A DNA stretch of 64,000 nt from an uncultured Rhodospirillaceae bacterium (GCA_937887565.1 CALABS010000012.1:57400-121399); one strand, 5' to 3'. Counted from the first letter of the stretch, positions 1,057 through 25,267 are shown. Notes: a model not told the origin generated them from the sequence alone. A program made the numbers and translations.

Positions 1057-1818
1057 CTAGATTCTCCGAATGACCTTCGTCTCGATTAGAGCATGAAGAT
1101 GGGCACGCAGTCCTGCGGGGACGTGTCCACCGCTGATCACAACGCCGGCCTCCATATTCTTCTCCAACGCATGCCCAGTCAGGTTAGCGCTGGTCAAGAA
1201 GGCTGAATTGCCGTCGGCAACGGCCACTTTCGCGTGAACCCGTCCTTCGGCGAACGGTGCCGGCCGGTCGGTCCAGACATACAGCGCTGCCGAAGGAACA
1301 CACCGCCGCATTGTAGCAATAGGATCGACGGACAGGCTCCCGCCATGGCTCGTGGAGGTCTCCAACAGAATTCGGATGTCGATGCCGCGAGTGCTTGCAG
1401 CATTCAATGCATCGACCACCGAGGAGACGTCGTATGCAACAAAGCTAACGAGAAAGAGGTCACTTCGCGCGTGATCGATGAGATCCAGCAGCACCTGCTC
1501 CGTGCGGCGGGTGGCGACGAATGGTGTCGTCGGGCCCGTCCAAACTAGTTCGACGCTGTTCTCGCGCTGCGCCTGTTGGCGGGCGAAGGCTGCGCCGACC
1601 AAGATCCCGGCCAGAACATCGCCTGATATTTCCGTCTGTTTCCAAGCGGCGATCAAGCGATCAAGCGCTGCGCGAGCAGCCGGCGTGCTCACGAGCTGAT
1701 GCAGGCTTCCGTATCGTTCGACCGGCATCGAGCCGCGGACACGATCAGCGAGTGCTTCGATCCTCGACGGAGATAACATGGCCACGAGGTCTGTGGCCGC
1801 GACCAATATCGCTTCCAT
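1057..1818 (-). CDS. drmC: DISARM DrmC, phospholipase-D (HKD) family nuclease
   Basis: 253 aa. HKD motif RVHAKVAVADGNSAFLTSANLT near the C-terminus. The start shares one base with the drmB stop (TGATG at 1816-1820). Confidence 0.8.
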   Translation of the reverse strand: MEAILVAATDLVAMLSPSRIEALADRVRGSMPVERYGSLHQLVSTPAARAALDRLIAAWKQTEISGDVLAGILVGAAFARQQAQRENSVELVWTGPTTPFVATRRTEQVLLDLIDHARSDLFLVSFVAYDVSSVVDALNAASTRGIDIRILLETSTSHGGSLSVDPIATMRRCVPSAALYVWTDRPAPFAEGRVHAKVAVADGNSAFLTSANLTGHALEKNMEAGVVISGGHVPAGLRAHLHALIETKVIRRI

Positions 1819-3659
1819 CAGACGGTCTCGAAGAATGCCGCGTCGGGATTTTCAAGGGTGGGTACCACGAGGGAACGATCGAGATGACGATTTCCCCTCT
1901 CACAGGACGTTTCCGAGACGAATGAACAGGCGTGACATGCTGCGCCGTGAAGTGACTGGTCCTTACTCGGATCGTGTTCTGAACAGAGTGGATCGGATGC
2001 GCAAATATGGGCGCGATCCAGCGCTTGGCGCAGAAGTCGCCCAAGATTTTCAGGCTTTCCTAGCTCTACGAGACCTCCCAGAGTGCCATCGGAATCTGCT
2101 GCAGCTGTGTAGATGAGAAATCCGGCTTGATCCCTCCCGTCCTCGACGTCTGCATATATACGCTCCCGAATACTCGCGGCGTTGTAGCCGCACTCCAAGG
2201 CCAGTTCCCGGATCAGCATGTGCGCGAGCGTGTGTAGCATGACATAACGAACGCCCGGGTAACCTTGGCTTGGGTCCAGGTTCCTCTTTTGCCGCCATCC
2301 GCGATGGCCCTGCCGTAACCGAGAGTCGAGAGCCTTCACCGGATCCTTATCCGCCCAAGCCTTCAATGCATTTGCATCGAAGCGAACGAAAATTCCTTCA
2401 CCGTGAACTTGAGTGGCCGGCACCCAGTTCGGTGCTGCGCGTGCGAGCGGGGCCCGTGGGGCTGCCTCATCTCCCGTACCTTCGTCAGGAGACTCGACTC
2501 GTGTGAATCCAAGGAGGGCGTTCACCTCACGAAGCCGCTCCAGCAGCAGAACGCGTGTGATCGCCGCACCGAAGCCCGAGGGCACGCCCACCTTCTTGCT
2601 CATGAAATGCGGATAGTCGGTGGGTGGGTTCTCGGCCGTAAGCACATCCCATTCCGGCCCTTTGAGGTCGCTCTGTTCGACGCCCGGTCCGCCATTGCGA
2701 TGGGTTTCGATTGCGGACCAAATCTGCTCGTCAGTGAACTGCTCGATGCCAGGCAGCTGCGCCGTCTTCTTCAGGGTCTTGACGACGAACGCCACTTCGG
2801 CCGCCGAAGTGACGTCTTCAAAGAACGTCCAGCCATCCGCGACCAGTTGCGCCAGAGGGCTTCCCACCTGTGGGATCGCGAGAACCGAGAGTGTGACCGG
2901 GAACCAGCTATTGGTTGCGCCAAGGAGAATTGCGCGAGGTTCCTCGGTGCAATCGTCCTCAAAGCGATCCACGTGCGGATGTCGCCCTCGGCAGGCTGGA
3001 AGGTTGTCTCGACCTGCCTGACCAAAAGCCTGCGCCATGTTCTTCGATGCGCCGCAGCCATCGCATTTGACCCACAGGTTCTCGGTTTGAAGTGATGCGC
3101 CGCTCTCGAAGAACCTCAGCGTCGCACGACAGGTGCTAGATCCGCCGTGAACGAACCAGTGCCAGGCAAAGTCGTCGAGGTGGCCAGCCCGACACGCCAT
3201 GAGAAAGCGCGCCGGGACGGCATCGGCATCCCTGGCCCTTTGATCGTTATTCGATCCGCGACAGCCCTCATGGACGAAACGCGTCAGCTCGGGGCGATAC
3301 CTGTTTTCCTTCAGCTTGAACAAGCCGGCGTCATACGGCGATAGCAGGCCGCATTTGACGCAGCGCAGCCACCGCGGGAAGGGTTTGACGGGCACGCCGA
3401 TCAGCGCGGCGGCTGAAAATGGGTCTGTGATATCCCTTTCGCCCACGGGCGGCATACGCAATGATTCGACTTGGGGTCCGAGCACGCCCCGGACGTTGGC
3501 GAGCAACCGTGCCTCTTGGATCGGCTGACACCTGTCTTTCTCCCAGCGGTCGATCCCCATCGTGACCACCGACATGTTCGGGAGGTCGATCAAGGCTCCG
3601 GGGCCGTAGGTCCAAAGCAACTGGCTCGGTCGAATTTCTCCTACGGGTGTCCTGCTCAT
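1818..3659 (-). CDS. drmB: DISARM DrmB, DUF1998 (MrfA-like Zn-binding domain) protein
   Basis: C-terminal signature SLHGAACHACSFVSETSCERGNRHLDR is typical of DUF1998. Cys-rich internal clusters (CVKCG, CDGCG). Start chosen at M14 of the track ORF because it gives an ATGA overlap with the drmA stop (3656-3659); 3698 is the alternative. Confidence 0.8.
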   Translation of the reverse strand: MSRTPVGEIRPSQLLWTYGPGALIDLPNMSVVTMGIDRWEKDRCQPIQEARLLANVRGVLGPQVESLRMPPVGERDITDPFSAAALIGVPVKPFPRWLRCVKCGLLSPYDAGLFKLKENRYRPELTRFVHEGCRGSNNDQRARDADAVPARFLMACRAGHLDDFAWHWFVHGGSSTCRATLRFFESGASLQTENLWVKCDGCGASKNMAQAFGQAGRDNLPACRGRHPHVDRFEDDCTEEPRAILLGATNSWFPVTLSVLAIPQVGSPLAQLVADGWTFFEDVTSAAEVAFVVKTLKKTAQLPGIEQFTDEQIWSAIETHRNGGPGVEQSDLKGPEWDVLTAENPPTDYPHFMSKKVGVPSGFGAAITRVLLLERLREVNALLGFTRVESPDEGTGDEAAPRAPLARAAPNWVPATQVHGEGIFVRFDANALKAWADKDPVKALDSRLRQGHRGWRQKRNLDPSQGYPGVRYVMLHTLAHMLIRELALECGYNAASIRERIYADVEDGRDQAGFLIYTAAADSDGTLGGLVELGKPENLGRLLRQALDRAHICASDPLCSEHDPSKDQSLHGAACHACSFVSETSCERGNRHLDRSLVVPTLENPDAAFFETV

Positions 3660-6600
3660 TGCTGATCCTCCTGGGGCTGCGTCACCCGCGGTCTCCAAGT
3701 CGGATCACTCGTCGAACGGTCGTCCTCCATCACGAGCCTGACACCAGGCTCGACTTCGCGCATGGACATCGGGACCGTCCAATCGGTCCAAGGTTTGATG
3801 CCCGGCGCCGAAAGCAGCGGATAGGCGGTGGGGCCTGCGCCGTGCTTCTGGTAGACGAGCGTGCGGCCGCCGACGCCCGCTTCATTGGCCCAATCGTCAG
3901 CGCGGCTCTTCATCTCGGCTTCGGTCAGGGTCTTCTTCCCCGAATCTTCCGTGACTTCCCAGGTGCGAGCGGCGACGGCGCCTATCGTATCCAACATCTC
4001 TTTGCGGCTCGGACTGTTCATGGCGCCAGCGCCGTCGTTTGCGGCGAAGGGATCGTAGGTGTGACGCATGATGGAGAGCATCGCGCCGGTGAGCCCTCGG
4101 TCCAACGCCCGTGGCGAGAACGGGGTGACGGATTGAGCTTCGACGTGCTGATAGAAGGTCGCGTGGTAATGCTCGAAGGTCTCGTAATGCGACAAGTCCC
4201 GAGGCCGCGCCCAGGTCAGCACAGTGGCCACCAGTCCTGGCGGCGTTCGGCCCACACGGCTGGTCGCCTGGATGTACTCGGCCGTTCCCTTGGGTTGGCC
4301 GTTTACGACCATCACTCCGAGACGATTCACGTCAACACCGACCGACAGCATGTTCGTGGCGAGAACGGCATCGATCGGCCGGGCCTCCCCTGGTTTCCTG
4401 TTGGTCACCCATTTGCCTAGTGCCGGATCGAAGGTGCCATCGAAAGGAACCTCGAGCTGATCGAGGTATCTCGGGATGTCCTGACTGGAGACCCGCGATG
4501 TCAGTTCGCTGATTTCCTCGACCCGCCGCTGCGCGAGCCCCGGTCGGTCCACCAGGCTCATATCGACACGGAAGGAACGCGTTTGGACGTCGTCTTCGGC
4601 CAGACGCTTCATCCCTCCGAGTTCTCGTAGCGAGTTGAAGTAGCCGACGAGGGTCATATAGGGGTCGGCCACCGGGCCGAACCGATCGAACAGCGCCTGC
4701 GCTGCGGTGAGGAACGCCGTATAGGTCCTGATCAGCACCGCAGGGCGAGAGCTTCCGGGTGCGCAGATTCCGATGTACCGTCGGCCGGGTTTTTCGCGGA
4801 TGGGCCTCTGGACCGAGAAGAAATTGTCTTCGACGTCCAGGCCGGAAGGCGGAAACACGGAAATGCGGCGCATGAAGACATTGCGCACCTGGTCGTCGGC
4901 CCGCCGCACGGTCGCGGTAGAAGCCACGACCTTGGGACGAACCTTCTCGTCGCCCAGACCCCAGCTGCTCAGCTCGTCGACGGCCGTTTCGTAAAGACCC
5001 ACCATGGTGCCCAGCGGACCGCTGATGAGGTGGAACTCGTCCTGGATGATCAGGTCGGGTGGTCGGATTGCACGGACCGGCTTCACACTGGCGGCCGGAT
5101 ATGCCCCCCTCGTTCGGTGCCCCGTGCCGCAGTCGTGACTCGGCCAGAGCAAACCATGGCGTCCGCATTCCTGCTCGACGCGGCCGAAAAGGTTCCGAAC
5201 CTCGGGACGCCACGCCATCATCGCGAACTTGTCGACGGTCGCGATCATCATCGTCGGCGGGCGGTGATATATTTCCTCGTCGACGACTTTCACGGGAAGC
5301 CCCGGGTGAGGCTGCCCAGTGGATTTCGCCTTCGAGAAATCGCAGCCGCCCAGCTTGTCGCCGCAGTGGATCAGCGTTCGGCCGGCGATCCTGTCGACCT
5401 TGATGTCGCGACCACCGGAGATCTCCGAACCGCACCAAGGGCAGCTGGTCAGCTGCGCAGGCGATGCAATGCCCGCCTTGTTGCGATCGTTGTTTCGAAT
5501 GGCCTCGACAGCCTGGTGAGACGCTTCGGTCGTGCCCGGTGTCACGCGATTGCCGACCCAGAGACCGAGCGTGAAAGGTTCCTTGCCCCAGGTCTTGTCG
5601 TCTGCACGACGGATGACCTCCATCGCGCAGAGCAGCGTCGTCGCCCTCTGGAACTGCTGAAGAGTAAGCAGTCGCAGCGTGTAGCGCATGATGACGGCGA
5701 GACCGCGTGATGCGTCGAGGCCGCCGAGATCATTCTTCAGTCGGCGCATGGCCATGGCGAAGGCCGCCACACCGAGATAGGCCTCGGTTTTGCCACCACC
5801 CGTCGGGAACCAGAGGAGATCGGCGAACGCCTCGACCGGCTTCGTCCGGTCCGGGTGTGTCGGATCGGCGAGCGACGGGATCGACAGGAGCAGGAACGCA
5901 AGCTGGAACGGGCGCCACGATCTGTTCTTCGGCACGTCCAAAGTGGTCACGTCGACGGCTTCGTTCCGTCTGCGCTTCAGAGCGTAGATGCTCCGCACAC
6001 GCTGCATGGCCATGGACCGGTTGGCGAAGCGGAACGCCTCCAGCGCCTTCGGATCGGCGAAGAGCGTACCCATGCCCTCTCGGAGGCGGCGCAGGATCTC
6101 CTCGCAGCGCTGAATGACGTCCTTGCCCGGATCATCGAAGCCGGTGATCTCCGACCCCAGCCGGGCCTTCTGCTCACCGATCCAAACGGCATAGTCGTCG
6201 ACGAGGCACGAGAGAGCGTCGCGCAGCGCGTCTGGCGCCATCTCCGCCAGCCGCGTCATGTCGAGCCAGCCCTCGTCGACCATGCGCCGCATGGCAGGGC
6301 GGTCCCTGGGATCGAGGCCGGGCGTTTCGGTGACGGCGACTTCGTAGCGCGGGATGATCTCCGTTCTGACGCGATGAGCCTTCGTCGGCTCCTCGGGCGT
6401 CGTATCCGCGTGTACGGAGACCCCGTGTCCGACCGCGAACTCCAGCCTGTTGCGATAGATGAGCGCGAGACGGTCGCGTTCCGGGTCGTCGACGACCACT
6501 TCGTTGGAGGGGCGACGCCGAAAGACCGACTTGTCCCCGTGATCTTCGGGGGCCTCTACGGTGATCTCCGGCTGGAACAGCCAGGCGCGGTCCTTGTTGT

Positions 6601-7651
6601 CTTCGGGTTCCAACTGCCCGTTGACGAGGAACAACGTGACCAGGCACTCCCCCTTGTTGTTCGTCCGAACCGTCCCCTGCAGGCGGACATCCGGTTGATC
6701 GGGGTCGGGAGTGGACGGCTTGATCGGCCCATCGACGAGCGGAACCGTGACGACGCCACCGCATGGGATGCGCTGCCAGACCCTGACCTTCACCTCCTCC
6801 TGGTGACCGGTTTGGCGGTTCTTCCGTGTTTTGACGATGTCGTGTTCATCGTTCGGGACCCGCTCGTACCGTCCCCACCGTGCATCGACGGCCAGCTTCC
6901 CGACGTCGGGCGCCACGCAGAAGGTGAGGCCCATGCTGGAGGGAACCAGCGACTGGTTGTTCGTCGTGTCGATCTCGTCGAGCGCGTCGTCTTCCGGCTC
7001 CACCCGGCCCGATGCACTGGCGAACTCGGCGCCGGGCTCGTGGAGTGGCGCCGTCCGTTCATCCTCGAGGTCGCCAGCCTCCTCGGCTGCCGAGGCCGGT
7101 TCGATCCGTGCCGCCTGGTCGTCATCCGGTCGGCGCGGCGCCAGCTTGCCGACCAGGTAGCGGTCGCGGACGCTCATGTCCTTGATCAGCTCATGAGGGC
7201 CACCGGCGGGGCCGAGCAGATCGTCGCGTACGGCGAGTTCCAGGAGGTCGCGGGTGTAGACGACATCGTCGATCAGCGGCACTGCGCCGGGGGCAGAAAC
7301 GCCGAGCAGCGGCAGGATGCGGAGGAACTCGTCCCATGGGAGCCGCGCCACAGGGCCGGTCGGCGCGGTCAGGCCGAGGACGGCGAGCGGCATGGACGGT
7401 TCGACGGCCTGCCAATGGTCGAAATGGATCGTGGCGCTGTCGAGATCCGAACGAATGCGAAGGATCCGACCCACCTCGGTGACGTTGGCGCCATCGTCCA
7501 GAACGACAACCCATTGGCCTTCCTCGATCGCGCCGAGAGTGGTCGACCCCACGTCAATGCGTACAGAATAGCGCGGCGAGTTGGACGTCCTCTTGAGAAT
7601 CCAGGCGCTGACGGATGGTTCGGTGGTCGCGGTCAGATCGGCCATGGTCAA
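3656..7651 (-). CDS. drmA: DISARM DrmA, large superfamily-2 DExH helicase
   Basis: 1331 aa. Motif I WFPTGGGKTEAYLGV, motif II IIQDEFHLISGPLG, motif VI YIQATSRVGR. Sits directly upstream of the DUF1998 gene, the characteristic helicase+DUF1998 pairing. ATGA overlap with the drmMI stop. Confidence 0.85.
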   Translation of the reverse strand: MTMADLTATTEPSVSAWILKRTSNSPRYSVRIDVGSTTLGAIEEGQWVVVLDDGANVTEVGRILRIRSDLDSATIHFDHWQAVEPSMPLAVLGLTAPTGPVARLPWDEFLRILPLLGVSAPGAVPLIDDVVYTRDLLELAVRDDLLGPAGGPHELIKDMSVRDRYLVGKLAPRRPDDDQAARIEPASAAEEAGDLEDERTAPLHEPGAEFASASGRVEPEDDALDEIDTTNNQSLVPSSMGLTFCVAPDVGKLAVDARWGRYERVPNDEHDIVKTRKNRQTGHQEEVKVRVWQRIPCGGVVTVPLVDGPIKPSTPDPDQPDVRLQGTVRTNNKGECLVTLFLVNGQLEPEDNKDRAWLFQPEITVEAPEDHGDKSVFRRRPSNEVVVDDPERDRLALIYRNRLEFAVGHGVSVHADTTPEEPTKAHRVRTEIIPRYEVAVTETPGLDPRDRPAMRRMVDEGWLDMTRLAEMAPDALRDALSCLVDDYAVWIGEQKARLGSEITGFDDPGKDVIQRCEEILRRLREGMGTLFADPKALEAFRFANRSMAMQRVRSIYALKRRRNEAVDVTTLDVPKNRSWRPFQLAFLLLSIPSLADPTHPDRTKPVEAFADLLWFPTGGGKTEAYLGVAAFAMAMRRLKNDLGGLDASRGLAVIMRYTLRLLTLQQFQRATTLLCAMEVIRRADDKTWGKEPFTLGLWVGNRVTPGTTEASHQAVEAIRNNDRNKAGIASPAQLTSCPWCGSEISGGRDIKVDRIAGRTLIHCGDKLGGCDFSKAKSTGQPHPGLPVKVVDEEIYHRPPTMMIATVDKFAMMAWRPEVRNLFGRVEQECGRHGLLWPSHDCGTGHRTRGAYPAASVKPVRAIRPPDLIIQDEFHLISGPLGTMVGLYETAVDELSSWGLGDEKVRPKVVASTATVRRADDQVRNVFMRRISVFPPSGLDVEDNFFSVQRPIREKPGRRYIGICAPGSSRPAVLIRTYTAFLTAAQALFDRFGPVADPYMTLVGYFNSLRELGGMKRLAEDDVQTRSFRVDMSLVDRPGLAQRRVEEISELTSRVSSQDIPRYLDQLEVPFDGTFDPALGKWVTNRKPGEARPIDAVLATNMLSVGVDVNRLGVMVVNGQPKGTAEYIQATSRVGRTPPGLVATVLTWARPRDLSHYETFEHYHATFYQHVEAQSVTPFSPRALDRGLTGAMLSIMRHTYDPFAANDGAGAMNSPSRKEMLDTIGAVAARTWEVTEDSGKKTLTEAEMKSRADDWANEAGVGGRTLVYQKHGAGPTAYPLLSAPGIKPWTDWTVPMSMREVEPGVRLVMEDDRSTSDPTWRPRVTQPQEDQQ

Positions 7652-10600
7652 TCGCCCCCCTCAATGGTCATTGGAAGAATGTCGTCGAGGTCGAGCGTCG
7701 GCTCGGACGCAGAAGTAGCGCGAGATCTGCGTCCACGCGCCTTAGCTGGGCCTGCGGTCCCGCCATGTAGACCCTGGTCGACCTCTTCCTGGTAACGCAG
7801 ACGATTGAGTTCAGCTAACCGACGCAGCACTTCTAGACGCGCCGACTCTGAGATCGTGAAGCGGGTTCGGTCGTTCTCGGGAAGGTAGGAAACCTCATGG
7901 AAACCATGACCGAGATCCACATCATCCCATCCGTATGCTTGAACAACGGCAACGTCGATTTGATAGTGCAATTCTCGAAGCTCTTTGACCTCTTCGTCTT
8001 GGTCCTCCGCATCGTGCAGTCGGTTGAATACGCCCGTCAATCCAATCTGCCTTGACACACTTATTCTGCGACGGAGATCTATAATACTCCTCACAATTTC
8101 TCTTTGCGAAACGCCTAGAGCCGGAGCTGGAAATGTTTCGAATGAGTCGCCCGGGGTATATAGAAGCCGTGTCTCAAGGGTAGAAGCGTGCTTCCTAACC
8201 CATACTTCGTGGATTTGGCTGAGCAAAGCACCAAGTAGATTTAGATCCTCAGATGCAAATACAGTTATCCGGTCAGACCATATTATGTTCGATGGCACCA
8301 AAGATGGCGCCAGATACTTAGAGACTCGCGATAGGCATATAACATTCTGCAGGGCAGACGCATCTTCTCGCCACCCTTCGACATGCCTTTCGAAATGGTG
8401 ACCTTGCCCCACGGCGTGATAAAGGCCGTGGCGCTCATTCCAATGCAGCCACCACCTCTGCATGATATTCCGGTATGCTCGTTGCTTGCTCTGTTCGAGG
8501 CGTTTTGGGTACACCTCTCGCTCAACGTGCTTCCAAGGCAGCGTGTATGTTTTTGCGCGCTCTTCGGGCCAGTCCCAAAAGTTGACGACCCATCTGCTCG
8601 GACACTGCTCAGGGTCCGAATTCAAGTCCTCGCCGTTCATGTAAGGAAATAGAACTTCAGCGTTCTTCGGGTCAGCATCAAGCATGTCGGCCGCTTCCCT
8701 AGGGGTAAGCGTGAAGCCGATCGCGTTAAGCTTCGATCCCTCAAATGCAATTCCCTTATTGGCGCGAAGCTGCTTAGGGCTCCACTCTTCTTGATCCGAA
8801 AGGAACGCGGAAATGTACCTGACAGGCTGTCCAGAGAGTGTTCGCTGTCCCCGCCAATCCCCCTTGTACACATGTACCTGACTGGTAACTACGGCCGCGG
8901 ATCCAGGCCAGGGTTCGTTTGGATATGCAGAATGTACTGCAGACCCATTGTGCAATAGCCATTCTAGACCGCACTGGCGGGTATCTCCCTCGGAGATAGT
9001 ATTTGTTGCAAGTAGTCCGAAATTCCCCCCTTCTCTCAACAAAGAAAATGCGCGCCGGAAAAAGTGCGCCGAGAGGTCTACATTCCTGTTGGTTCCTGCG
9101 TGAATATTCACCAGCCATGTGTTGAATGCTGGGCCCAAGATCGTACTGATTCTCTTGCCGCCTAGAAACGGTGGGTTGCCGATAAACGCGTCAAAGCCCG
9201 CACTTTTGCGAAGAAAAACTTCTGGGAATTCTAGGGGCCAATGGAAAGGCCGTCGCACCGCTCCGTCGGGCGCATCTTTGGCCAAATCATTCTGAGCGTC
9301 ATGCAGGAGTCGTCTTTTTGCCGGTGTGTCGCCATCTGCGGCGGCGTCGGCGAAAGCCGCCAACGTCTCGATCCGTGCGGTGCGCTCTCCCGAACGCTGT
9401 TCTGCCAGAACGATGCCGATGAAAGCATCGGCGATGAGCGTCGGCAGCGCCAGTTCACCGCGCGATTGCGCATCAAGTGCTGCCATCGCCCCGACATCAT
9501 GAATATCGCGAATTGGGATCTCCCGCAGACGAGCGCGGAGTTCGAGCGCCTTGTCGACCGCTGATCGAATGGTCCGTCCAAACAATCGGAGCTGAGCCTT
9601 CCCCTTCGGATTCATGTCGAGCTCGACCAGCTGACCGAGATCGTGAATCCCGAGAAGGCTGTCACCACTACGCAGATTGTGGTCGAGGAAGCCGAAGGGC
9701 CGTCCCTTCGACATGGTGGTGAGCCAGAGCGACAGCTTGGCCAGCTCCACGGCCAGAGGGTTCTTGTCTACGCCGTAGAGGCATCGCTCCGCCACGAGGC
9801 GACGGGCGACGATCGCGCGTTCCTCCGCGTCCTGTGAGAGGGGATCGAAGCCCTCGGCGGTATCGCCTTCGACGATGCGCCCCTCGCTGTCGATCTGCTT
9901 GCCGGTCTTCTCCGTTGCCGACCAAGCCTCGACCAGACGATCCGAGAGCCATCGGCACGCCTGCACGAGGAAGGCTCCAGACCCCATGGCAGGATCGCAG
10001 ATCTTCAGGTCGAGCAGCTCCTCGGCGCTTTTCAGCTCCCAGTCCTCGGGCGCTTTGCCTTCGGCCGGGCCGCGGTAGGCGACTGGAGTCAGCGTTTCCG
10101 CGACGATCTTCTCCGTCAGGCTCTTCGGCGTGTAGTGCGTGCCGCTCTCGCGCCGGTCGGCGCCGAGCACGACGACAAAGGCGCCCTTGTGGTGGACGAG
10201 CGGATAGCCCCAGGGATCGGTCCGCAGGAGGGACGCGGAGGGCAGGATGCGATCGCGCAGACCGATATCGCCGCGGCAAACGGTGAGGAGGCGCGCGGCG
10301 AGACGATCGTCGGCTGGCCGCTCGAGGGCGTTACGGATGGCGGACTCTGAGCGCTCGCTCCGTTCCTTCAGCAGTTCAGCAACCCTCGCCGGACCATCCA
10401 GGCGCGCCGACTCCAACTCGCCAAGCGTCACGCGCGGGCTCTTCGCCTTCGCGCCGCTGTCGAGTTCCAGCGTGACATCGTCGACGCGCTTCACCGTGCG
10501 TTCGAGGAGGCCCTCGTAGACGTGCCCGATCTGCTCCACGTCGAGCGCGCGGTAGGACAGCGTGCGGCCTTCGAAAGTCTGGATCGCTTCCAACAACAGC

Positions 10601-11769
10601 AGAACGGTGCGGTCGTCGATCGGCAGCGGTTCGGCTGGATCGCTCCGCCAGCTCGTGCCCTTCTTTCGCCCTTCGAGGAACGGATAGCGATCGGGGTCGA
10701 ACAACGAACCACCGAGCGCTGGAAGGCGCAGCGTCGGATGATCGATACCACCATACACGCCACGAAACAGGGCGAGCAGCCGCGACCAGGCGGATCGGCG
10801 GCGCTCGAGGATCTCTTCGGAATCCGCACGCAACTGCATTCGCAGGCTGGAGATGGCGTAGAAGGAGTCGTAGCGGGGATCGCCGAGCAGTAGCAGGGCG
10901 CGTTCCTCGGCCGATAGTAGGAAGACGAGCCGCATCATGACCGTTAGACCGGCCTCGTAGAGTTCTCGCGGATCGACATCGCGCAGGAGCTCGCGATTGC
11001 GATCCTGGTCGGCGCGGTCGAGCGCCTGGACGAGCACTTCGACGGCGCGCCGGACCTGTTCTCCGAGCGCCTCGGTCACGTCGTCCTGGTGCTTCAAGGA
11101 CCTCTCATAGAGCGCCGGTAGCTTTCCTTCGTCGGGTCCGAAGAAGCGGCGGATGCCTAAAAGGCTGACGAAGGCGCGCAGCGTTTCTGGTTCCTGGCCC
11201 CAGAGCCGCGCATACCAGCTCGCGAAGCCTGCCACGACGCCGACGGGCGCGTGGACGAGCATCCAGCGCTCGCCATTGGTGACGATGCCGGTGGGGCATC
11301 CTGTCGACCTGAGCAGAGCGACCATCCGGTCGGCCGGGGTGATCGCGAGGCCATCGAAACGGCGCGTCGCATCCAGATCGGTGTCGGGCTCGTAGATGTG
11401 GATGAGCAGAAGCGGTTCGTCGGAGTTCGTTGGATTTACGACCGCCAGATCGGGCGCGACCGTGACTCCGTGTTCGGGCATCGAGACAGTCAGCTTCTCA
11501 GGCAGTCTCGCGCCCCCGCGCAGCACCGTCTCATCCATTTCCAGCGCGGTGACCAGCACGTCGTCGATCCAGGCCGCGTGCAGCGCTGGAAGGTCGAGGT
11601 CGTCCATGTCGACGGCATCGCGCCATTCCTCATAGGTCCGACGAAGCCGCTGAGGCCGCCCGGAAGGCAGGGCTTCAAGGCCTTGCGGGAAGACTTCCCG
11701 CAGCACGGGCACCGCCAGAAAGGGCCCAGAGACTTCGATGAGGTTCAGCCACTCGTGATCGTTGCTCAT
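7648..11769 (-). CDS. drmMI: DISARM DrmMI, large N6-adenine DNA methyltransferase (Eco57I/type IIG-like)
   Basis: 1373 aa. SAM motif I ICDPAMGSGAFLVQA and catalytic motif IV FDAFIGNPPFLGG. ATGA overlap with the drmD stop (11766-11769). Confidence 0.8.
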   Translation of the reverse strand: MSNDHEWLNLIEVSGPFLAVPVLREVFPQGLEALPSGRPQRLRRTYEEWRDAVDMDDLDLPALHAAWIDDVLVTALEMDETVLRGGARLPEKLTVSMPEHGVTVAPDLAVVNPTNSDEPLLLIHIYEPDTDLDATRRFDGLAITPADRMVALLRSTGCPTGIVTNGERWMLVHAPVGVVAGFASWYARLWGQEPETLRAFVSLLGIRRFFGPDEGKLPALYERSLKHQDDVTEALGEQVRRAVEVLVQALDRADQDRNRELLRDVDPRELYEAGLTVMMRLVFLLSAEERALLLLGDPRYDSFYAISSLRMQLRADSEEILERRRSAWSRLLALFRGVYGGIDHPTLRLPALGGSLFDPDRYPFLEGRKKGTSWRSDPAEPLPIDDRTVLLLLEAIQTFEGRTLSYRALDVEQIGHVYEGLLERTVKRVDDVTLELDSGAKAKSPRVTLGELESARLDGPARVAELLKERSERSESAIRNALERPADDRLAARLLTVCRGDIGLRDRILPSASLLRTDPWGYPLVHHKGAFVVVLGADRRESGTHYTPKSLTEKIVAETLTPVAYRGPAEGKAPEDWELKSAEELLDLKICDPAMGSGAFLVQACRWLSDRLVEAWSATEKTGKQIDSEGRIVEGDTAEGFDPLSQDAEERAIVARRLVAERCLYGVDKNPLAVELAKLSLWLTTMSKGRPFGFLDHNLRSGDSLLGIHDLGQLVELDMNPKGKAQLRLFGRTIRSAVDKALELRARLREIPIRDIHDVGAMAALDAQSRGELALPTLIADAFIGIVLAEQRSGERTARIETLAAFADAAADGDTPAKRRLLHDAQNDLAKDAPDGAVRRPFHWPLEFPEVFLRKSAGFDAFIGNPPFLGGKRISTILGPAFNTWLVNIHAGTNRNVDLSAHFFRRAFSLLREGGNFGLLATNTISEGDTRQCGLEWLLHNGSAVHSAYPNEPWPGSAAVVTSQVHVYKGDWRGQRTLSGQPVRYISAFLSDQEEWSPKQLRANKGIAFEGSKLNAIGFTLTPREAADMLDADPKNAEVLFPYMNGEDLNSDPEQCPSRWVVNFWDWPEERAKTYTLPWKHVEREVYPKRLEQSKQRAYRNIMQRWWLHWNERHGLYHAVGQGHHFERHVEGWREDASALQNVICLSRVSKYLAPSLVPSNIIWSDRITVFASEDLNLLGALLSQIHEVWVRKHASTLETRLLYTPGDSFETFPAPALGVSQREIVRSIIDLRRRISVSRQIGLTGVFNRLHDAEDQDEEVKELRELHYQIDVAVVQAYGWDDVDLGHGFHEVSYLPENDRTRFTISESARLEVLRRLAELNRLRYQEEVDQGLHGGTAGPAKARGRRSRATSASEPTLDLDDILPMTIEGGD

Positions 11770-14700
11770 CCGCGCTTCTCCGTCGCGAGGGAGTTCGGAA
11801 CCAGCAGCACCACGGCCACGGGGAAGGTATGCTCGACGGCATTGGAGTGCCGTTCCTCGATCGCGCGTAGCTCTTGCTCGCGCTCCTTCGGGATCCGGGC
11901 CAGGCGTGCTTCGAGGGCCGCTCGGTCACGCTTGAGCTGAGTGCGTTCGTCCTCGGAGAAAAGAGAGAGCTGCACGGGTTGCTGTTCCGCCGCGATCTCG
12001 GTCTTCAGCGCTCGTTCGAGATCGTCCAGGACTTGGCGGATGTCCTCGGCCTCCTTGCGCTTCCGGGTCTCGATCGTGTTCACGAGGAAGCGTAGCCGGT
12101 CTTTCGAGCGTGCCTCGACGGCTGCCAGAACGGAATCACGCTGTTTGTCGAAGCGCGTCCTCAAGGCCTCAAACGTCGCATCCGGCAGGGCCGCGGGGTG
12201 CGACTCCTCCAGCCATCGTCGGACCTCCGTGACCCGTTCCTCCCGCCGGAAACCGGCATCGCGCAGATAGCCGCCAGCCTCCGTGAGCTCCTCGTGCAGA
12301 CGATGATGGTTCCCGCCGGTCACGACGAGCCGCGACATCACCACCACGGCCGGTCCCTCGATCCGCCCATCCGGAAGCGAGCGCACGGTCACGCGGTGAA
12401 GCTTCTTCACGTCGTCACGGGCCCAGATCTCCGCGCGCAGGAGCCGCAGACTCATCTGGACGAGCCGGTGGTTCAGGTGGACGAGGACCACGTCGTCACG
12501 GCCCTTGGCGACCTCGTGGTCGAAGGTGATCGGGCGAACCTTCTGCGTGTAGGGGTGTTCTAGACCCTCGAGGCATCGGGACCAGGAACCCGAGAGCGGC
12601 GGCATTCGGAAAACCGTGCCATCTGGTGCACCGGCCAGAGAAACGGGCTCCAAGTCGGGTTTGTCCGCAAGACGCAACGCCGTGCGTACCGCCCGCTCGA
12701 TGTGGTCGGGCACGAGGCTCTGTTCGTGCCGGGTCTCGTTCAGCCGCTCATGGAGTTTGGCCACACGTTCGCGAAGGTCGCGCTCCGCCTTCACGAAGCG
12801 GCGGGATTTCTCCATCCGGGCTTCGGCTTGTCTCGTGTCGAGATCGCGGCGGCGCCCCTCGAGGAGGTCTGGCAGTTGAGGCGCGATGACCGGGTTCACG
12901 CTCCCCATGTCGGCGCGCATCGCATCCAGTTTGCGAAGCGCACGGAGGATATCGTCACCGTGGCCTCCTTCAGGATCCACCGGATGCCAAATGACGACCT
13001 CGCTCGCGCGTTGACCATGACGGTCGATGCGCCCGTTCCGCTGTTCCATCACATTCGGGTTGTACGGAATTTCGAGATGGATCATCAGATGACAGTGGTT
13101 CTGGAGATCGATGCCCTCGGAGGCGGCATCGGTCGCCAGCAGTATCCTCACCGGGGATTCCGAAGGGTTGGCCTGGAACGCGGCTTTCACGCCCTCGCGT
13201 TCTTTCGGGTCCATGCCACCATAGATGAGAGCCAATCGCTCGCCCCCGAAGCCGTGGGATGCGAGGATCTCCTGCATCCATTGCTGAGTGGCGCGATACT
13301 CGGTGAACAGGATCACCCGCTCGTTCGTCCACCTGTCACCGTCCTTCAGGTGACTGGCCAGCCAATCCAGCACGGCGGTGGCCTTGGCGTCGGTTCGACG
13401 AGCCGCCTGCTGGGCCCAGGACCGCAACCGGTCGAGCATCCGGCGTTCTTCGTCGGTCGGTGGCCGGACGTGCTTGCCCGCTTCCTCGATCGCTTCAGCC
13501 TCGGCGGCATCCCGCTGGGCGTCGTCTGCGTAGTCTTCCTCGGTCTTCGCTATCGCCCGCCGAAGGATGCGGTCATCGAATTTCTTCTGGCTGCGATCGC
13601 TAGCCGCCCGACCTTCGATCGTCGCGATATGCCGCTCCAGTGTCGCTGCAAAGGCTGCAGGTGACGATGACAGGCGCTTGCGCAGCAACTGGTGCACGAA
13701 GTGATCGACGGCCCGCTCTCCATCAGCACCGCCTTCGCGGCTCTTGATGTATGCTTCCAGCTGCCGCCGGGCATCCCTCTCGTCTTCGCTATACTCCACC
13801 GGCAGCGCTTCGAGCCGTCGCTCGGGGTAAATTCGCTTGCCATTCGCATCGACCAGATCGCTCTTCAGCCGACGGACCATCACCCGGGCGAGTTGGGGAT
13901 CACTTGGGAGGACGTTTCTCGCGAACCGCTGATCATCAAGGAGTTCGAGGAGTGCGGTGAAGGATTCGGTGTAACCGTCGTGCGGCGTGGCTGTGAGAAA
14001 CAGTTTGTGCTGGAAGTGTGGCGCGGCCAGACGAACCAGACGGGTCCTGAGGCTTTCGACAGCGTAGCGGCCGACGGTCGGCGCGACGTTGTGAGCCTCG
14101 TCGATGATCAGCAGGTCGAACTTCCTGGGATGGCTGACGTGCGGGGGCAATGCGTCCCGTAGAAGACGCAAGCCTTCACCCTGCTTGGCCCAGTCCATCG
14201 ACGTGATGAGACGGGGAAAAGACGTCCAGGGATTCGCGTGCAGGCCTCGCTCGCGGCGCAGACGCTTGACGTATTCCGTATCGACGATCCGGAACTCCAG
14301 CCCGAACTTCTCCTGCATCTCGACGCGCCATTTTTCCTGCAAAGAGGCAGGGCAAAGCACGAGAACGGTACGGGCACGGTGCCGCAACAGCATCTCTTGA
14401 ACGACGAGTCCCGCCTCGATGGTCTTCCCGAGGCCGACGTCGTCGGCGATCAGCAGATTGGTGCGCGCCATGTCGATCGCGCGCACGAGCGGATCCAGCT
14501 GGTAATCCTCGATGCTGACGCCACTGCGGAATGGCGCCTGCAGATAGCCGCGATCCGCGTTCGTCGCTGCGCCCCAAACCACCGCATCCAAGAAGGCTTG
14601 AAGCGTGGATGGGTCATCCAGCCCGGTCATGCGCGGTAGTCCGGCCCGCTCGATCACATGCGCTCCGGGCTCCAGCTCCCAGAGCACTTCGATCTCTTCA

Positions 14701-14885
14701 CCCAGCGCATCCTCGTCGATTGAGGCCAGCCGAACGAGATGCCGCTTAGGAAGTCCAGGGGCAACCGAACCGCCTTCGACCTCGGAGACGATCCATTGTC
14801 GGCGCCGAGCCTCGACCAGCTGGCCCGGCTCGGGCGCAGTGGCGTGAGCCACCTCGGCCACTATTTCATCTGCGGTCATCGGCAT
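11766..14885 (-). CDS. drmD: DISARM DrmD, SNF2-family helicase/ATPase
   Basis: 1039 aa. Motif I LIADDVGLGKTIEAG, motif II LLIIDEAHNV, motif V LLATDAASEGIDLQ, motif VI YNPNVMEQRNGRIDRHGQ. Confidence 0.85.
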   Translation of the reverse strand: MPMTADEIVAEVAHATAPEPGQLVEARRRQWIVSEVEGGSVAPGLPKRHLVRLASIDEDALGEEIEVLWELEPGAHVIERAGLPRMTGLDDPSTLQAFLDAVVWGAATNADRGYLQAPFRSGVSIEDYQLDPLVRAIDMARTNLLIADDVGLGKTIEAGLVVQEMLLRHRARTVLVLCPASLQEKWRVEMQEKFGLEFRIVDTEYVKRLRRERGLHANPWTSFPRLITSMDWAKQGEGLRLLRDALPPHVSHPRKFDLLIIDEAHNVAPTVGRYAVESLRTRLVRLAAPHFQHKLFLTATPHDGYTESFTALLELLDDQRFARNVLPSDPQLARVMVRRLKSDLVDANGKRIYPERRLEALPVEYSEDERDARRQLEAYIKSREGGADGERAVDHFVHQLLRKRLSSSPAAFAATLERHIATIEGRAASDRSQKKFDDRILRRAIAKTEEDYADDAQRDAAEAEAIEEAGKHVRPPTDEERRMLDRLRSWAQQAARRTDAKATAVLDWLASHLKDGDRWTNERVILFTEYRATQQWMQEILASHGFGGERLALIYGGMDPKEREGVKAAFQANPSESPVRILLATDAASEGIDLQNHCHLMIHLEIPYNPNVMEQRNGRIDRHGQRASEVVIWHPVDPEGGHGDDILRALRKLDAMRADMGSVNPVIAPQLPDLLEGRRRDLDTRQAEARMEKSRRFVKAERDLRERVAKLHERLNETRHEQSLVPDHIERAVRTALRLADKPDLEPVSLAGAPDGTVFRMPPLSGSWSRCLEGLEHPYTQKVRPITFDHEVAKGRDDVVLVHLNHRLVQMSLRLLRAEIWARDDVKKLHRVTVRSLPDGRIEGPAVVVMSRLVVTGGNHHRLHEELTEAGGYLRDAGFRREERVTEVRRWLEESHPAALPDATFEALRTRFDKQRDSVLAAVEARSKDRLRFLVNTIETRKRKEAEDIRQVLDDLERALKTEIAAEQQPVQLSLFSEDERTQLKRDRAALEARLARIPKEREQELRAIEERHSNAVEHTFPVAVVLLVPNSLATEKRG

Positions 14886-15316
14886 AGATGGGCCCCGTTC
14901 CTTCTGCGAGCGTCGACAAATTCGGCGATGCGGTTTGCGGCTTGGATGGCGTCTTCGTGTTCCCAGATCCGGACCGTCTCCCAGCCGAGAGCAGCCAGCC
15001 GCTGATCAGTATCGGCATCCCTAAATCGATTGGTTTCGATCTTCTCCCGCCAGAAATCGGCGTTGCTCTTCGGCCAGGAAGCGTGCTCGGGGCAGCCGTG
15101 CCAAAAGCATCCGTCGACGAACACGGCCAATCTCGCGCTAGGGAAAACGATATCGGCAACGCGCCTGGGCTTAGTCAGGAGCGGAACGTGGAGGCGATAA
15201 CGCAGCCCCTTGGCATGCAGAGCCTTGCGGAGATTTATCTCCGCACGCGTGCCCTTCTGTCGCACGCGAGCCATGCGACGACTGGCGTCATGCGACGAGG
15301 GACTTACGCGCGTCAT
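14876..15316 (-). CDS. vsr: Very-short-patch repair endonuclease
   Basis: 146 aa with SRRMARVRQKGTRAEINLRKALHAKGLRYRLH and FVDGCFWHGCPEH, hallmark Vsr motifs. Overlaps the 3' end of dcm (15288-15316) and the 5' end of drmD (14876-14885). Confidence 0.85.
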   Translation of the reverse strand: MTRVSPSSHDASRRMARVRQKGTRAEINLRKALHAKGLRYRLHVPLLTKPRRVADIVFPSARLAVFVDGCFWHGCPEHASWPKSNADFWREKIETNRFRDADTDQRLAALGWETVRIWEHEDAIQAANRIAEFVDARRRNGAHLCR

Positions 15317-16385
15317 CCGCCACGGCTCCCTTCTTCTTTCTCTTCGCCTTCTGGACCTCGATCCCCAGATGGACAGCGATGCTCCGGCCGATCACCTCGC
15401 CCAGAGTGACCGGAACGGCGTTTCCAATCATCCGACCCAAGGCCTTGAAATGAACGGGGGCCCCGTCGGGTATGAAGGAATAGGACTTGGGGAAGCCTTG
15501 AAGAATTGCGCCTTCTCGCAGAGAGATGGCTCGGTCCTGCTCGGGGTGTCCAAACCGACCGTTCCCGAATCCGTAGAACTGGGTGGTCAAGGTCGGAGCG
15601 GGTTCATCCCATACCATCCGGCCATAGACGCCCGGATAGGTACGCCCCGTCTCACGCCGGTGGCAGTCGGCAATGAGATGTTTTGGCCAGTCTCGCCATG
15701 TTCCACCCGGTCGAGAGGCGCGAATTCTTTGAAGATTTAGGTCAGAGAGCTTTGATGCGGCATGCAGCACATCCTTGGGATGGGCTTCTCCCTGAGCGAT
15801 CGGCGCAAGGACGCCGATCGCCTCGCGCACGGTCTTCGGGCGACTGTGTGTCGGGGCGAACAGCTCAATTGGCCCGAGTCTAGAGGCCAATAGCACCATG
15901 CGCCGCCGGTTCTGCGGCAATCCGTAAAGGGAGCAATCGACTATCGCTTGGTGGACGTGGTACCCCGATTTCTGGAGAGTCTCGACGAAGTCATCGAACA
16001 CAGTGTGTTTGGCCACCGAAGGCACATTCTCCATAGTGACCAGGTCGGGACGCGTAGCTTTGATCAGCCGCCCGAACTGATAGAGAAGACCCCATCGAGG
16101 GCTTCCAACGACATCGTAGCGCTGGGCGTAGGTGGAAAATGGCTGGCAGGGGGCGCACCCGGCCAGCACCCGGATTTCGGCGTCGCCGAACAACTCGTTG
16201 AGGCGCTTGGGAGCAAGGCGACCCACGTCTTCCTTGATGAAGCGCGCTGCGTTATTGGCTTCAAATGGGTGGCGGCAGGCTTCATCGACGTCAATGCCCG
16301 CGACGACCCGAACGCCCTCCGAGATCAGGCCATGCGTAAGCCCGCCGGCTCCACAGAACAAGTCGACGCACGCGACATCAGCCAT
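15288..16385 (-). CDS. dcm: DNA cytosine-5 methyltransferase
   Basis: C5-MTase motifs I DLFCGAGG, IV GCAPCQPFS, VI MENVPS, VIII QNRRR, X GNAVP. Start taken at MADVACVDLF (ATG 16385); the track start is 16406. Confidence 0.85.
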   Translation of the reverse strand: MADVACVDLFCGAGGLTHGLISEGVRVVAGIDVDEACRHPFEANNAARFIKEDVGRLAPKRLNELFGDAEIRVLAGCAPCQPFSTYAQRYDVVGSPRWGLLYQFGRLIKATRPDLVTMENVPSVAKHTVFDDFVETLQKSGYHVHQAIVDCSLYGLPQNRRRMVLLASRLGPIELFAPTHSRPKTVREAIGVLAPIAQGEAHPKDVLHAASKLSDLNLQRIRASRPGGTWRDWPKHLIADCHRRETGRTYPGVYGRMVWDEPAPTLTTQFYGFGNGRFGHPEQDRAISLREGAILQGFPKSYSFIPDGAPVHFKALGRMIGNAVPVTLGEVIGRSIAVHLGIEVQKAKRKKKGAVADDARKSLVA

Positions 16386-16644
16386 CAGCTTTCTCTCCCC
16401 CCGCATTCGCCCCCTTCTGTGAATCGGCCTCGGCCGCCTCGCCTTCCTTTTGATCGTCCGATGCTTTCCCGTGCCTCACCCAGTCATCAACTTCGTCGGT
16501 TTTGAACTTCCAAAGCCTCCCGACCTTGTGGGCCGGCATGTCCTTCTTCGCGATCCAGCCGTAAACCGTGTCTTTGCTGACACCGAGATATTCAGCGATC
16601 TCCTCCACGGAGACCCAGCGATCGGACATGGTGCGGCCCTTCAT
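16378..16644 (-). CDS. Small helix-turn-helix DNA-binding protein (excisionase/AlpA/MerR-like HTH)
   Basis: VSVEEIAEYLGVSKDTVYGWIAKKDMPAHKVGRLWKFKTDEVDDWV matches the excisionase-family HTH pattern, with an acidic/Gly-rich tail. The 3' end overlaps the dcm start by 8 nt. Start uncertain (16644 or 16629). Confidence 0.6.
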   Translation of the reverse strand: MKGRTMSDRWVSVEEIAEYLGVSKDTVYGWIAKKDMPAHKVGRLWKFKTDEVDDWVRHGKASDDQKEGEAAEADSQKGANAGGEKADG

Positions 16645-16889
16645 CAGCCAACCTGTTTCAAGGCTCAAGCATCGCACCCGGTCGGTCAAAAGTAAACCAA
16701 ATATAAGCCCGTTTCATCGGGTCTAATCGGATTTGGTCGGATAAAGAAGGCGGGGGGCGCGAGGCTGAGCCGATCAAGGGGTACCTCGACCTCTTGGTCC
16801 GAAGATCGGTTCTGACGCAGAGATATGCGAGAAATGAGCGCGCCCATTCCCCACGGCGCGCCTCGTGGCCGCTCCCGGCGCCATAAGGC

Positions 16890-17744
16890 CTATTTTTGAG
16901 GGTACTCAACCCGATACCACTCAGTCTGCGCGTTTCTAAGTATTTCTGATAATTCCGACTCATCCATCATCAAATCCAGAATCTCTGTTCGGGGCTTTTC
17001 GATGAACCGATAGGCGGCAATCAATCGGAATGCGCAGTACCATAGCTGATCTGAAATTACCCGGGCTGCATGCGCATGGTGAGTGGCGACACGTCGGTTC
17101 TCAGGCCGGTGCTCGCGCTCCACTACCATTCCAATACCCAGGTAATCCGCATGAGCCACATGGCTCGCCATTGCGTAACCGTGAAGGAGCCCGGCAGCGA
17201 GTTCACCAAGTCCTTCCCCATTACGCACCATCTGTTCGATGATGCCGCTAAACCCCCATGCTGCCTGGATCCGCCTCCGCTCTTGCCGCGGATATTTGGC
17301 AGCAAACTCGGCTCGCTTCTCCTCGGTCAGAATGAGCTCTTGAAGGACCGCTACCATGTCGTCTCTTGGGTCCGGTGCGATCTCGATCAGACGTCGGGCC
17401 TTCTCATGGTCGGCGAGAGAGGCGATATCGCTCAGGGAAATTTCGTACTCATCAAAGCGCGATGCGGCATTCTTCGGATCTCCCAATAGATGGCAGAACT
17501 TTACAGTACCCTCAAAGACGGACCGGGACAGAATTTCCGCGTCCCATACGCGTTCGAAACCGGCTAGCAACAGAGCGCTGCCACTCGCCCGAATGCATGC
17601 GGTAGATAGCCAGCTTATCGTTTGGCGCTGACCAGTAGTAAGTCTGTCTGACGCCATCACCGGCTTCATAAGGCCGACGAGTTCGTAAAGCCTTGCATCG
17701 GCCAGGTCGACCAGACGCTGCATACTCGTTGGTGTTTTAGGCAT
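16890..17744 (-). CDS. Hypothetical protein (helical, AT-richer island cargo)
   Basis: Long ORF in the lowest-GC part of the island with no recognisable motif. Start chosen at MPKTPTSMQRLVDL (ATG 17744); the track ORF runs to 17921. Confidence 0.45.
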   Translation of the reverse strand: MPKTPTSMQRLVDLADARLYELVGLMKPVMASDRLTTGQRQTISWLSTACIRASGSALLLAGFERVWDAEILSRSVFEGTVKFCHLLGDPKNAASRFDEYEISLSDIASLADHEKARRLIEIAPDPRDDMVAVLQELILTEEKRAEFAAKYPRQERRRIQAAWGFSGIIEQMVRNGEGLGELAAGLLHGYAMASHVAHADYLGIGMVVEREHRPENRRVATHHAHAARVISDQLWYCAFRLIAAYRFIEKPRTEILDLMMDESELSEILRNAQTEWYRVEYPQK

Positions 17745-18133
17745 TGCTGCACTCTCTCGACGGGTCTGGTCTTTGCTTTGCCTGTCAAAGGACGTCATCA
17801 CTAGACAGGCGGCAAGCGGAAAGCTGCGCAATTGCTGTTTTTGCAGATTTTCTCGGACGCACTTTTCGGCAAGCGGGCCCGCTAACAGAGAGTTGGTGGT
17901 CGGTTCCACTCCCTCCGCCAATATTCCTTACGAAATCAATTCTCCGCATTCGAGCGCCTGGGTGAAGCCCTGGCGGGCTGCGCCGTTCATGGCACCAAGC
18001 CGTGGACCGAGTGTGACCTGCTCCCCGACTTCCTGCCGGTTATGAGTAGAGTCCCGTCCGATTGTGATGCCCGAAGCGGGCGGTGATGGCAAGCAGGCCC
18101 GGGGCATGCTTGCTTCGCGGCGAGGCCTCCCTT

Positions 18134-22230: not shown

Positions 22231-22397
22231 CTCTGGGTCTCGGCAAAGCTGCGACGATCTTCGCAAGATACGCAGGCCGTCCGCGCCGCGCAGGCAAAAA
22301 AGGGCGAAGAATTGCCAACCGGGCGGAGGCATTCTGCGAATCCTGCGAATCCCCGGCGCGCTTGACTTGCCCAGGCCGCGGCCCTACCGTCCATGGC

Positions 22398-25228: not shown

Positions 25229-25267
25229 GACTTGACACCCTTCGGGCGCATCACTACGGTATCTTGC

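Follow-up and report, generated by a model that had tools for sequence, protein, structure and literature searches.

We have analysed a 64,000-nucleotide stretch of DNA from an uncultured Rhodospirillaceae bacterium (GCA_937887565.1 CALABS010000012.1:57400-121399), referred to below as the window or the 64-kb window, which carries on its minus strand, between positions 1057 and 16740, eight close-packed genes of a DISARM defence system. Their order is HTH-drmMII-vsr-drmD-drmMI-drmA-drmB-drmC, where HTH denotes the gene for a small helix-turn-helix protein. An earlier note on this DNA had placed an HTH gene, a C5-cytosine methylase gene (there called dcm) and a Vsr endonuclease gene directly 5' of drmD and on the same strand, and gene calls and profile matches bear this out. 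The gene set is that of class 1 DISARM, in that a DrmA-DrmB-DrmC triplet is preceded contiguously by DrmD and DrmMI, and each of these 5 proteins passes a curated NCBIfam or PADLOC model. Coordinates and supporting matches are collected in Table 1.

Table 1. Features of the DISARM locus, in order of transcription, with positions counted from the first nucleotide of the window
Feature	Coordinates	Strand	Basis and remarks
Tandem 10-nt units, five; candidate operator	16691..16740	-	CCGACCAAAT CCGATTAGAC CCGATGAAAC GGGCTTATAT TTGGTTTACT
Sigma-70-type promoter with extended -10 (predicted)	16668..16696	-	Conserved in 43 loci
HTH protein, excisionase-family, MAD1-like, 83 aa	16378..16629	-	PF12728, TIGR01764, NF047737, PADLOC mad1
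DrmMII, C5-cytosine DNA methyltransferase, 365 aa	15288..16385	-	PF00145, PADLOC DrmMII; alternative ATG 16406
Vsr, very-short-patch-repair T:G mismatch endonuclease, 146 aa	14876..15316	-	PF03852, TIGR00632
DrmD, SNF2-like helicase	11766..14885	-	NF038317 DISARM_DrmD, 1376 bits (cutoff 610); PADLOC DrmD
DrmMI, MmeI/Eco57I-like N6-adenine methyltransferase	7648..11769	-	PADLOC DrmMI PDLC02643, 1842 bits
DrmA helicase	3656..7651	-	NF038325, 1465 bits
DrmB, DUF1998/MZB protein	1818..3698	-	NF038324, 760 bits
DrmC, PLD-family nuclease	1057..1818	-	NF038319 DISARM_DrmC_I, 257 bits (cutoff 133); PF13091, 4e-17

The junctions between these genes are overlaps throughout. We observed that the HTH stop (16378) and the ATG of the methylase gene (16385) share 8 nucleotides (nt), that the methylase stop (15288) and the vsr ATG (15316) share 29 nt, and that the vsr stop (14876) and the drmD ATG (14885) share 10 nt, or 4 nt with the alternative drmD ATG at 14879; the coordinates thus confirm all 3 overlap lengths that had been claimed. 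Farther downstream, drmD and drmMI overlap by 4 nt, as do drmMI and drmA, while the overlap of drmA with drmB is at most 43 nt, provided that drmB starts at TTG 3698, and that of drmB with drmC is 1 nt. One coordinate required correction. The HTH start, earlier put at 16644, was moved to the ATG at 16629 (MSDRW...), which is served by a GAAGGG ribosome-binding site and conserved across 45 loci; an ATG at 16644 is missing from close relatives.

Comparison with related loci was made through a DrmD search with one genome per species, which yielded 80 loci with DrmD 66–99% identical to that of the window, 73 of them with enough upstream DNA to be judged; individual loci are cited below by L numbers. 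In 72 of the 73, drmD is immediately preceded by a methylase gene in the same orientation. The dcm-vsr adjacency to which the earlier note had drawn attention is common among these class 1 loci (DrmD at least 66% identical), vsr being located between the methylase gene and drmD in 68/73; an HTH gene precedes the methylase gene in 48/73, and Vsr without the methylase was observed in 0 of the 73. The junctions are similarly maintained, with overlaps of dcm and vsr in 66/71 loci, of vsr and drmD in 69/72 and of drmD and drmMI in 68/74, and given that the overlaps are kept across related loci the arrangement of the genes is not due to chance. The source organisms include many alphaproteobacterial orders, gammaproteobacteria, Myxococcota and members of other phyla. 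Since DrmD is 93–99% identical across many of the alphaproteobacterial orders, the sequences point to recent horizontal spread of the operon. When the methylase rather than DrmD was used as the query, 6 of 7 sampled homologues (72–79% identity) were found in the same DISARM context, the exception being L106 (see below), and RefSeq/PGAP annotation of a Microvirga plasmid lists helix-turn-helix, DNA cytosine methyltransferase, very short patch repair endonuclease and DrmD. A blastn search of Escherichia coli genomes returned only an unrelated P2-prophage methylase accompanied by a type II enzyme, and no DISARM.

Upstream of the HTH gene we found a predicted promoter comprising the -35 element TTTACT (16696-16691), a 17-nt spacer, an extending TG (16676-16675) and the -10 element GATGCT (16673-16668). 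Its counterparts, of the form TTTAC(T)-N17-(TGn)GATACT/AATAGT/AAAGAT, stand at a constant distance of ~45 nt before the HTH start codon in 43 loci, which represent many genera. A generic promoter scan missed this element because the -10 sequence of the window agrees with the consensus at just 3 of 6 positions. The same scan detected no promoter or terminator at the vsr/drmD junction or at the other junctions, a negative result that is weak either way in view of the promoter it had missed, and Rfam searches detected no known RNA element in the operon region. Because the genes overlap at every junction (an arrangement conserved in ~70 species), a single conserved promoter precedes HTH, and no promoter or terminator signal appears between vsr and drmD, one predicted transcription unit of eight genes, as had been proposed, is the best reading of the sequence.

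The product of the first gene matches Pfam HTH_17 (PF12728, 5.5e-17) and the excisionase-family domain TIGR01764 (3e-19), and it meets the MAD1 model NF047737 marginally (81.3 bits against a cutoff of 80; PADLOC mad1, 7e-13). There was no HTH_3 match at E <= 0.01, the significant matches being to HTH_17 and the excisionase family. The DNA in front of the gene contains five tandem 10-nt units, the fifth of which includes the -35 element. In 43 HTH-bearing loci, we observed 4–5 phased direct repeats of the type CCGryyWAAW upstream of the -35 element; the repeat search did not resolve the degenerate 10-bp units of the window itself, so that their definition rests on the cross-species comparison. 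The motif at the junction of repeat units occurs 2.26 times per 66 nt, versus 0.27 in shuffled sequences, and at least 2 copies are present in 36/45 HTH-bearing loci versus 2/25 HTH-less loci, the latter contrast being the independent one. The combination of conserved promoter and tandem 10-bp repeats is restricted to loci in which an HTH gene is present. Homology at the DNA level to the closest relatives of the window sets in at ~16742, the edge of the repeat array, and the repeat search recorded only one weak inverted repeat in the interval 16620-16800. Because repeats and promoter co-occur with the HTH gene, we think that the HTH protein probably autoregulates the operon by binding the repeats at 16691-16740.

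The suggestion in the earlier note that the HTH acts as a controller resembling the C proteins of type II restriction-modification (R-M) systems holds in part. As in those systems, a small DNA-binding protein is encoded first in the operon and its candidate sites overlap the promoter, and the conservation of promoter and repeats together with the HTH gene favors a role as a regulator; by this analogy, a part in the timing of expression through autoregulation is possible. Unlike the C proteins, however, which are of the Xre/HTH_3 type and bind palindromic C-boxes, the window HTH is of the HTH_17/excisionase type and is associated with 4–5 tandem direct 10-bp repeats, so that the more specific part of the suggestion does not stand. 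A second likeness is to MAD1 of the MADS system, where a small excisionase-type HTH protein also heads a methylation-based defence operon. MADS differs in possessing mad2-mad8, none of which had a PADLOC match among the downstream genes of the window (drmMII, vsr and the DISARM genes), and the score of the window protein barely exceeds the MAD1 cutoff. Deletion of mad1 hardly affected MADS defence (bioRxiv 10.1101/2023.03.30.534895), which, by analogy, fits an accessory or a regulatory function of the HTH.

The methylase matches PF00145 (9.4e-54) over 322 of the 324 profile positions, and its translation contains FCGAGG, PCQ, ENV, QNRRR and GNAVP, corresponding to motifs I, IV, VI, VIII and X, in agreement with the earlier description of a complete C5 methylase. 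The top PADLOC model for this protein, over its full length, is DrmMII (PDLC02651, 2.1e-92), and with the profile match of DrmMI the presence of both adenine and cytosine methylase genes in the locus is confirmed. The enzyme shares 65% identity, which extends over the target-recognition region, with a 350-aa methylase encoded directly upstream of drmD in loci of the type found in Serratia, and because of this identity to an enzyme at the same position, the 'dcm' of the window is, as judged by sequence, DrmMII. Since the target-recognition region is about as well conserved as the catalytic core in comparison with the Serratia-type enzyme, the recognition motif of the window enzyme is probably TCGA-like. 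We counted 530 TCGA sites in the 64-kb window, versus 321 +/- 16 in dinucleotide-preserving shuffles; that is, the probable core site of DrmMII is over-represented here and not depleted. With 530 sites in the window, a TCGA-type methylase would generate many 5-methylcytosine (5mC) residues prone to deamination.

The combination of adenine and cytosine methylation in one DISARM operon, which the earlier note took to be outside any described class, is in fact published. Class 1 DISARM with an added drmMII is described in the passage of Aparicio-Maldonado et al. 2021 that cites Ofir et al. (bioRxiv 10.1101/2021.12.28.474362), and the example characterized there, from Serratia sp. SCBI, has a DrmMI that deposits N6-methyladenine at ACACAG and a DrmMII that deposits 5mC at MTCGAK; methylated plasmids escape that DISARM, and its methylases are dispensable for avoiding autoimmunity (bioRxiv 10.1101/2021.12.28.474362). 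It is for this Serratia orthologue that protection from phage or plasmid DNA is known. Bravo et al. 2022 similarly refer to an operon with 'DrmMI and/or DrmMII', and show that 5mC-containing DNA reduces the ATPase activity of DrmAB (PMC9142583). By sequence, the window system is a close relative of this Serratia model. DrmA and DrmB align over their full lengths with the Serratia proteins of PDB 7S9V (chain A, 1774 bits, and chain B, 1036 bits, respectively), DrmB at ~72% identity as counted from the printed alignment, and DrmD is 66% identical to its Serratia-type counterpart. Class 2 DISARM (Bacillus paralicheniformis; drmMII, drmE, drmABC) likewise combines a DrmMII C5 methylase with DrmA, DrmB and DrmC, but, unlike the window, is without DrmD and DrmMI, and its DrmMII site is CCWGG (bioRxiv 10.1101/2021.12.28.474362).

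The supplement of the Serratia paper mentions neither gene order nor vsr (bioRxiv 10.1101/2021.12.28.474362). The Serratia-type loci compared here were reached via the PDB DrmB sequence and are metagenome contigs, with DrmB 98% identical to the PDB chain, rather than the SCBI genome. These loci, which represent the Serratia SCBI DISARM of PDB 7S9V/7S9W, share with the window the five core genes, their order and a C5 methylase gene directly upstream of drmD on the same strand, and they keep the promoter architecture (TTTACC, 17 nt, GATCAT; L099, 7933-8060, and also L098, L100 and L066). They differ from the window in having a 49-nt gap between drmMII and drmD in place of vsr, an HTH gene reduced to a 13-codon stump (MGLSSLDRWSSVE, then a stop) upstream of drmMII, and a short KAP-NTPase open reading frame (ORF) between drmMI and drmA. 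Judging from these sequences, the Serratia model appears to have been derived by reduction from the eight-gene form, the majority one in this clade.

The Vsr protein matches PF03852 (2.3e-17) and TIGR00632 (115 bits, cutoff 97.85). In alignment with E. coli Vsr (1CW0, 5e-12), we observed that the catalytic Asp, the GCFWH core and the FW wedge residues are kept, and that the zinc ligands are Cys/His variants. The dcm and vsr genes of E. coli overlap as well, the 3' end of the C5 methylase gene covering the start of vsr, and catalytic and DNA-wedge residues are common to the 2 Vsr proteins. Unlike the E. coli pair, the pair in the window is part of a defence operon, with vsr overlapping drmD too, and the methylase sites also differ, being CCWGG in E. 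coli and, by our assignment, TCGA-like in the window. Judged by its sequence, Vsr most likely repairs T:G mismatches that arise from deamination of 5mC at DrmMII sites. We favor this role because the distribution of Vsr follows that of the methylase and not that of DrmD, because some loci lose vsr yet keep the methylase, and because the Serratia-type loci do without vsr and the Serratia system still defends when transplanted without it.

In the aggregate, we consider it likely, with good confidence, that the locus is a class 1 anti-phage DISARM operon, horizontally mobile and of a DrmMII-containing subtype, in which expression from one promoter and coupled translation are combined with self-marking by DrmMII and DrmMI, repair by Vsr and autoregulation by the HTH protein. 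According to this interpretation, all eight genes would be transcribed from the extended -10 promoter upstream of HTH, and their translation would be coupled through the overlapping gene junctions. DrmMII would place 5mC, and DrmMI N6-methyladenine, on host DNA, and both marks may damp DISARM on self DNA, as has been shown for the Serratia orthologues; of the roles that the earlier note offered for the C5 methylase, a second self-marking activity is thus the one backed, by analogy, by experiment. Vsr, whose repair role we infer because of its family membership and its tracking of the methylase, would nick 5' of the T where deamination of 5mC has left a T:G mismatch, leading to repair to C:G, and would thereby limit the mutational cost of DrmMII in a GC-rich genome. 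The HTH protein would bind the tandem 10-bp repeats that abut and include the -35 element, and so set the level of operon expression. Another role offered for the methylase, that of an anti-restriction cargo, found no support, the module being located on a chromosome or an island and having a fixed place at the start of a defence operon; we dropped this candidate, as nothing connects the module with entry into a new host.

Several observations weigh against this interpretation. Our survey covers DrmD relatives at least 66% identical to that of the window, and the distant class 1 systems of Oscillatoria (L094) and Rhodococcus (L095) are without dcm or vsr. The Serratia-type loci have neither vsr nor an intact HTH gene, and because the six-gene Serratia system, transplanted to E. 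coli without these 2 genes, still defends (bioRxiv 10.1101/2021.12.28.474362), vsr and HTH are not required for defence. The regular expression for the repeats was built from the very loci in which they were then counted, and the TCGA-like motif is drawn from just 65% identity to the Serratia-type enzyme. Lastly, L106 (6001-10009) contains a Dcm (75–78% identical) and a Vsr (75%) in the absence of DrmD, DrmMI, DrmA, DrmB and DrmC, together with a GHKL ATPase (68% identical to that of L013) and a PF20553 protein (62%), amid ABC-transporter genes; this locus shows that DISARM accessory genes can exist as a cassette of their own.

The L106 pair is also what might be expected if HTH-dcm-vsr were the leftover of a type II R-M system, i.e. 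an orphan methylase with its repair partner, hitch-hiking without a function in DISARM. Relatives of the methylase at 50–59% identity occur in non-DISARM contexts, a Deinococcus plasmid has a full system of dcm, vsr and a REase_II-like ATPase just past drmC, and in certain Rhodobacterales loci the 5' module has been exchanged independently of drmD (Dcm ~70% versus DrmD 94–97% identical). Yet the module keeps its position and overlaps in 68–72 of 73 species from several phyla, which is unexpected for a passenger, and where it was exchanged it was always succeeded by a homologous one. Moreover, methylation by the Serratia DrmMII raises plasmid escape, and 5mC-containing DNA lowers DrmAB ATPase activity (bioRxiv 10.1101/2021.12.28.474362, PMC9142583). 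We therefore regard the leftover explanation as unlikely; the R-M remnant of the earlier note is plausible as an evolutionary origin of the methylase, but its conservation and the Serratia experiments speak against it as a description of present function.

Two further alternatives concern single genes. The coupled Vsr might, in most proteobacterial class 1 systems, double as a defence nuclease, for instance by nicking and so opening invader DNA, or DrmMII sites that lack methylation, which would give DrmAB a single-stranded point of entry. The overlap of vsr with drmD in 69/72 loci suggests translational coupling of the 2 genes; DISARM can do without DrmC, and its nuclease role is as yet unassigned in the literature (bioRxiv 10.1101/2021.12.28.474362; PMC9142583); and Vsr-type nuclease domains are fused to YprA helicases in ARMADA and some Druantia systems (PMC12458937). 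Against such a role, Vsr is found only in company with the methylase, the protein passes the canonical Vsr model and has kept the mismatch-wedge residues, loci without vsr retain drmMII and drmD, and the Serratia transplant defends actively without vsr. We give this possibility little credence. If it were true, Vsr would provide DrmAB with its single-stranded, 5'-overhang entry point and would supply the nuclease activity that the dispensable DrmC leaves unexplained, in parallel with the ARMADA and Druantia fusions. The HTH protein, for its part, might be the excisionase (recombination directionality factor) of an island that carries DISARM, rather than a regulator of the operon, as its TIGR01764 match would allow; its candidate sites are direct repeats, as with Xis-type proteins, and in Bradyrhizobium loci a tyrosine integrase gene lies two genes upstream. 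However, no integrase gene adjoins the operon in the window or in most loci, and although the upstream flanks vary from locus to locus, HTH, repeats and promoter remain joined to drmMII, which the HTH gene overlaps. The repeats, in turn, overlap the -35 element of the operon, and the nearest curated family, MAD1, heads another methylation-based defence operon. It seems to us scarcely probable at all that the HTH protein serves in excision instead of autoregulating the operon.

The DISARM literature that we searched does not contain the occurrence of Vsr and a MAD1-like HTH as the majority architecture, the HTH-linked promoter and repeats, or the notion of a reduced Serratia model. In that literature, nothing ties 'very short patch' to DISARM or drmD, except for the Vsr-domain fusions to YprA helicases (PMC12458937), and no paper ties an HTH gene to DISARM operons. 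The architecture common in this clade has eight genes and not six, among them a canonical Vsr and a MAD1-like HTH with a promoter and repeat array of its own. The Serratia model, with its partial methylation and lack of autoimmunity in the absence of the methylases, appears to be a trimmed form, and its behavior may for that reason not stand for that of the regulated full form. The association with Vsr also suggests that carriage of DrmMII has a mutational cost for which selection has compensated.

We also observed marked variability in DrmMI, a protein with Pfam matches to Eco57I, MmeI_Mtase and MmeI_TRD. Hypervariability within the operon is confined to the part of its gene that encodes the target-recognition region (~7940-9150), and it is here that DNA homology to the relatives breaks. 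In the subset of loci whose DrmD identity is 90% or higher, the median identity of DrmMI is 70%, versus 92–96% for DrmD, DrmA and DrmB. This variability, at an MmeI-type target-recognition region, suggests frequent swapping of specificity beside a stable DrmMII, and possibly a division of labor between a changing and a constant mark.

Other differences among the relatives involve the genes around or within the DISARM core. In six Rhodobacterales loci (L005, L010, L011, L015, L016 and L073), DrmD is 94–97% identical to that of the window versus 69–70% for the methylase; by these identities, the 5' module there has been swapped by recombination for a homologous module. In ten loci (L013, at 17618-20032, and L025, L030, L045, L050, L057, L075, L081, L085 and L089), genes for a GHKL ATPase (HATPase_c_3, ~471 aa by our ORF calling) and a PF20553 'Methyltransf_35' protein (~331 aa) are inserted between drmMI and drmA; neither member of this pair is in PADLOC, and both are lacking from the window. 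On a plasmid of Deinococcus sp. AJ005 (L093, 29160-32869), vsr, dcm and a gene for a REase_II-like GHKL ATPase lie just 3' of drmC, and this trio makes up a full type II R-M system of its own, the DrmD of the adjoining DISARM being 58% identical to that of the window. In Sinorhizobium meliloti (L104, 7486-10606), drmD is divided into two ORFs (436 and 595 aa), probably through a frameshift or as a pseudogene; the gene is intact in the near-identical L105.

The remaining features of the window lie outside the operon. The plus-strand interval 200-1054 encodes the C-terminal portion of a Peptidase_M15 protein and, after it, contains a pair of small ORFs, of which one has the lipoprotein-like sequence LTGC; these genes converge on the end of drmC and resemble a lysis cassette of phage type at the flank of the island. 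On the other side, between the DISARM unit and a methylmalonyl-CoA mutase gene, a minus-strand gene (16890-17921) in DNA of low GC content (0.56–0.58) has a weak match to DUF5677 (26.9 bits, just below the cutoff); it has no counterpart among the 80 DrmD-anchored loci and is probably a separate cargo of the island. No tRNA genes were found in the 64-kb window. Outside the island, on the plus strand, there are two cobalamin riboswitches (22386-22566 and 25255-25447; 121 and 150 bits, respectively) and a COG3860 RNA motif (31966-32019, 76 bits).

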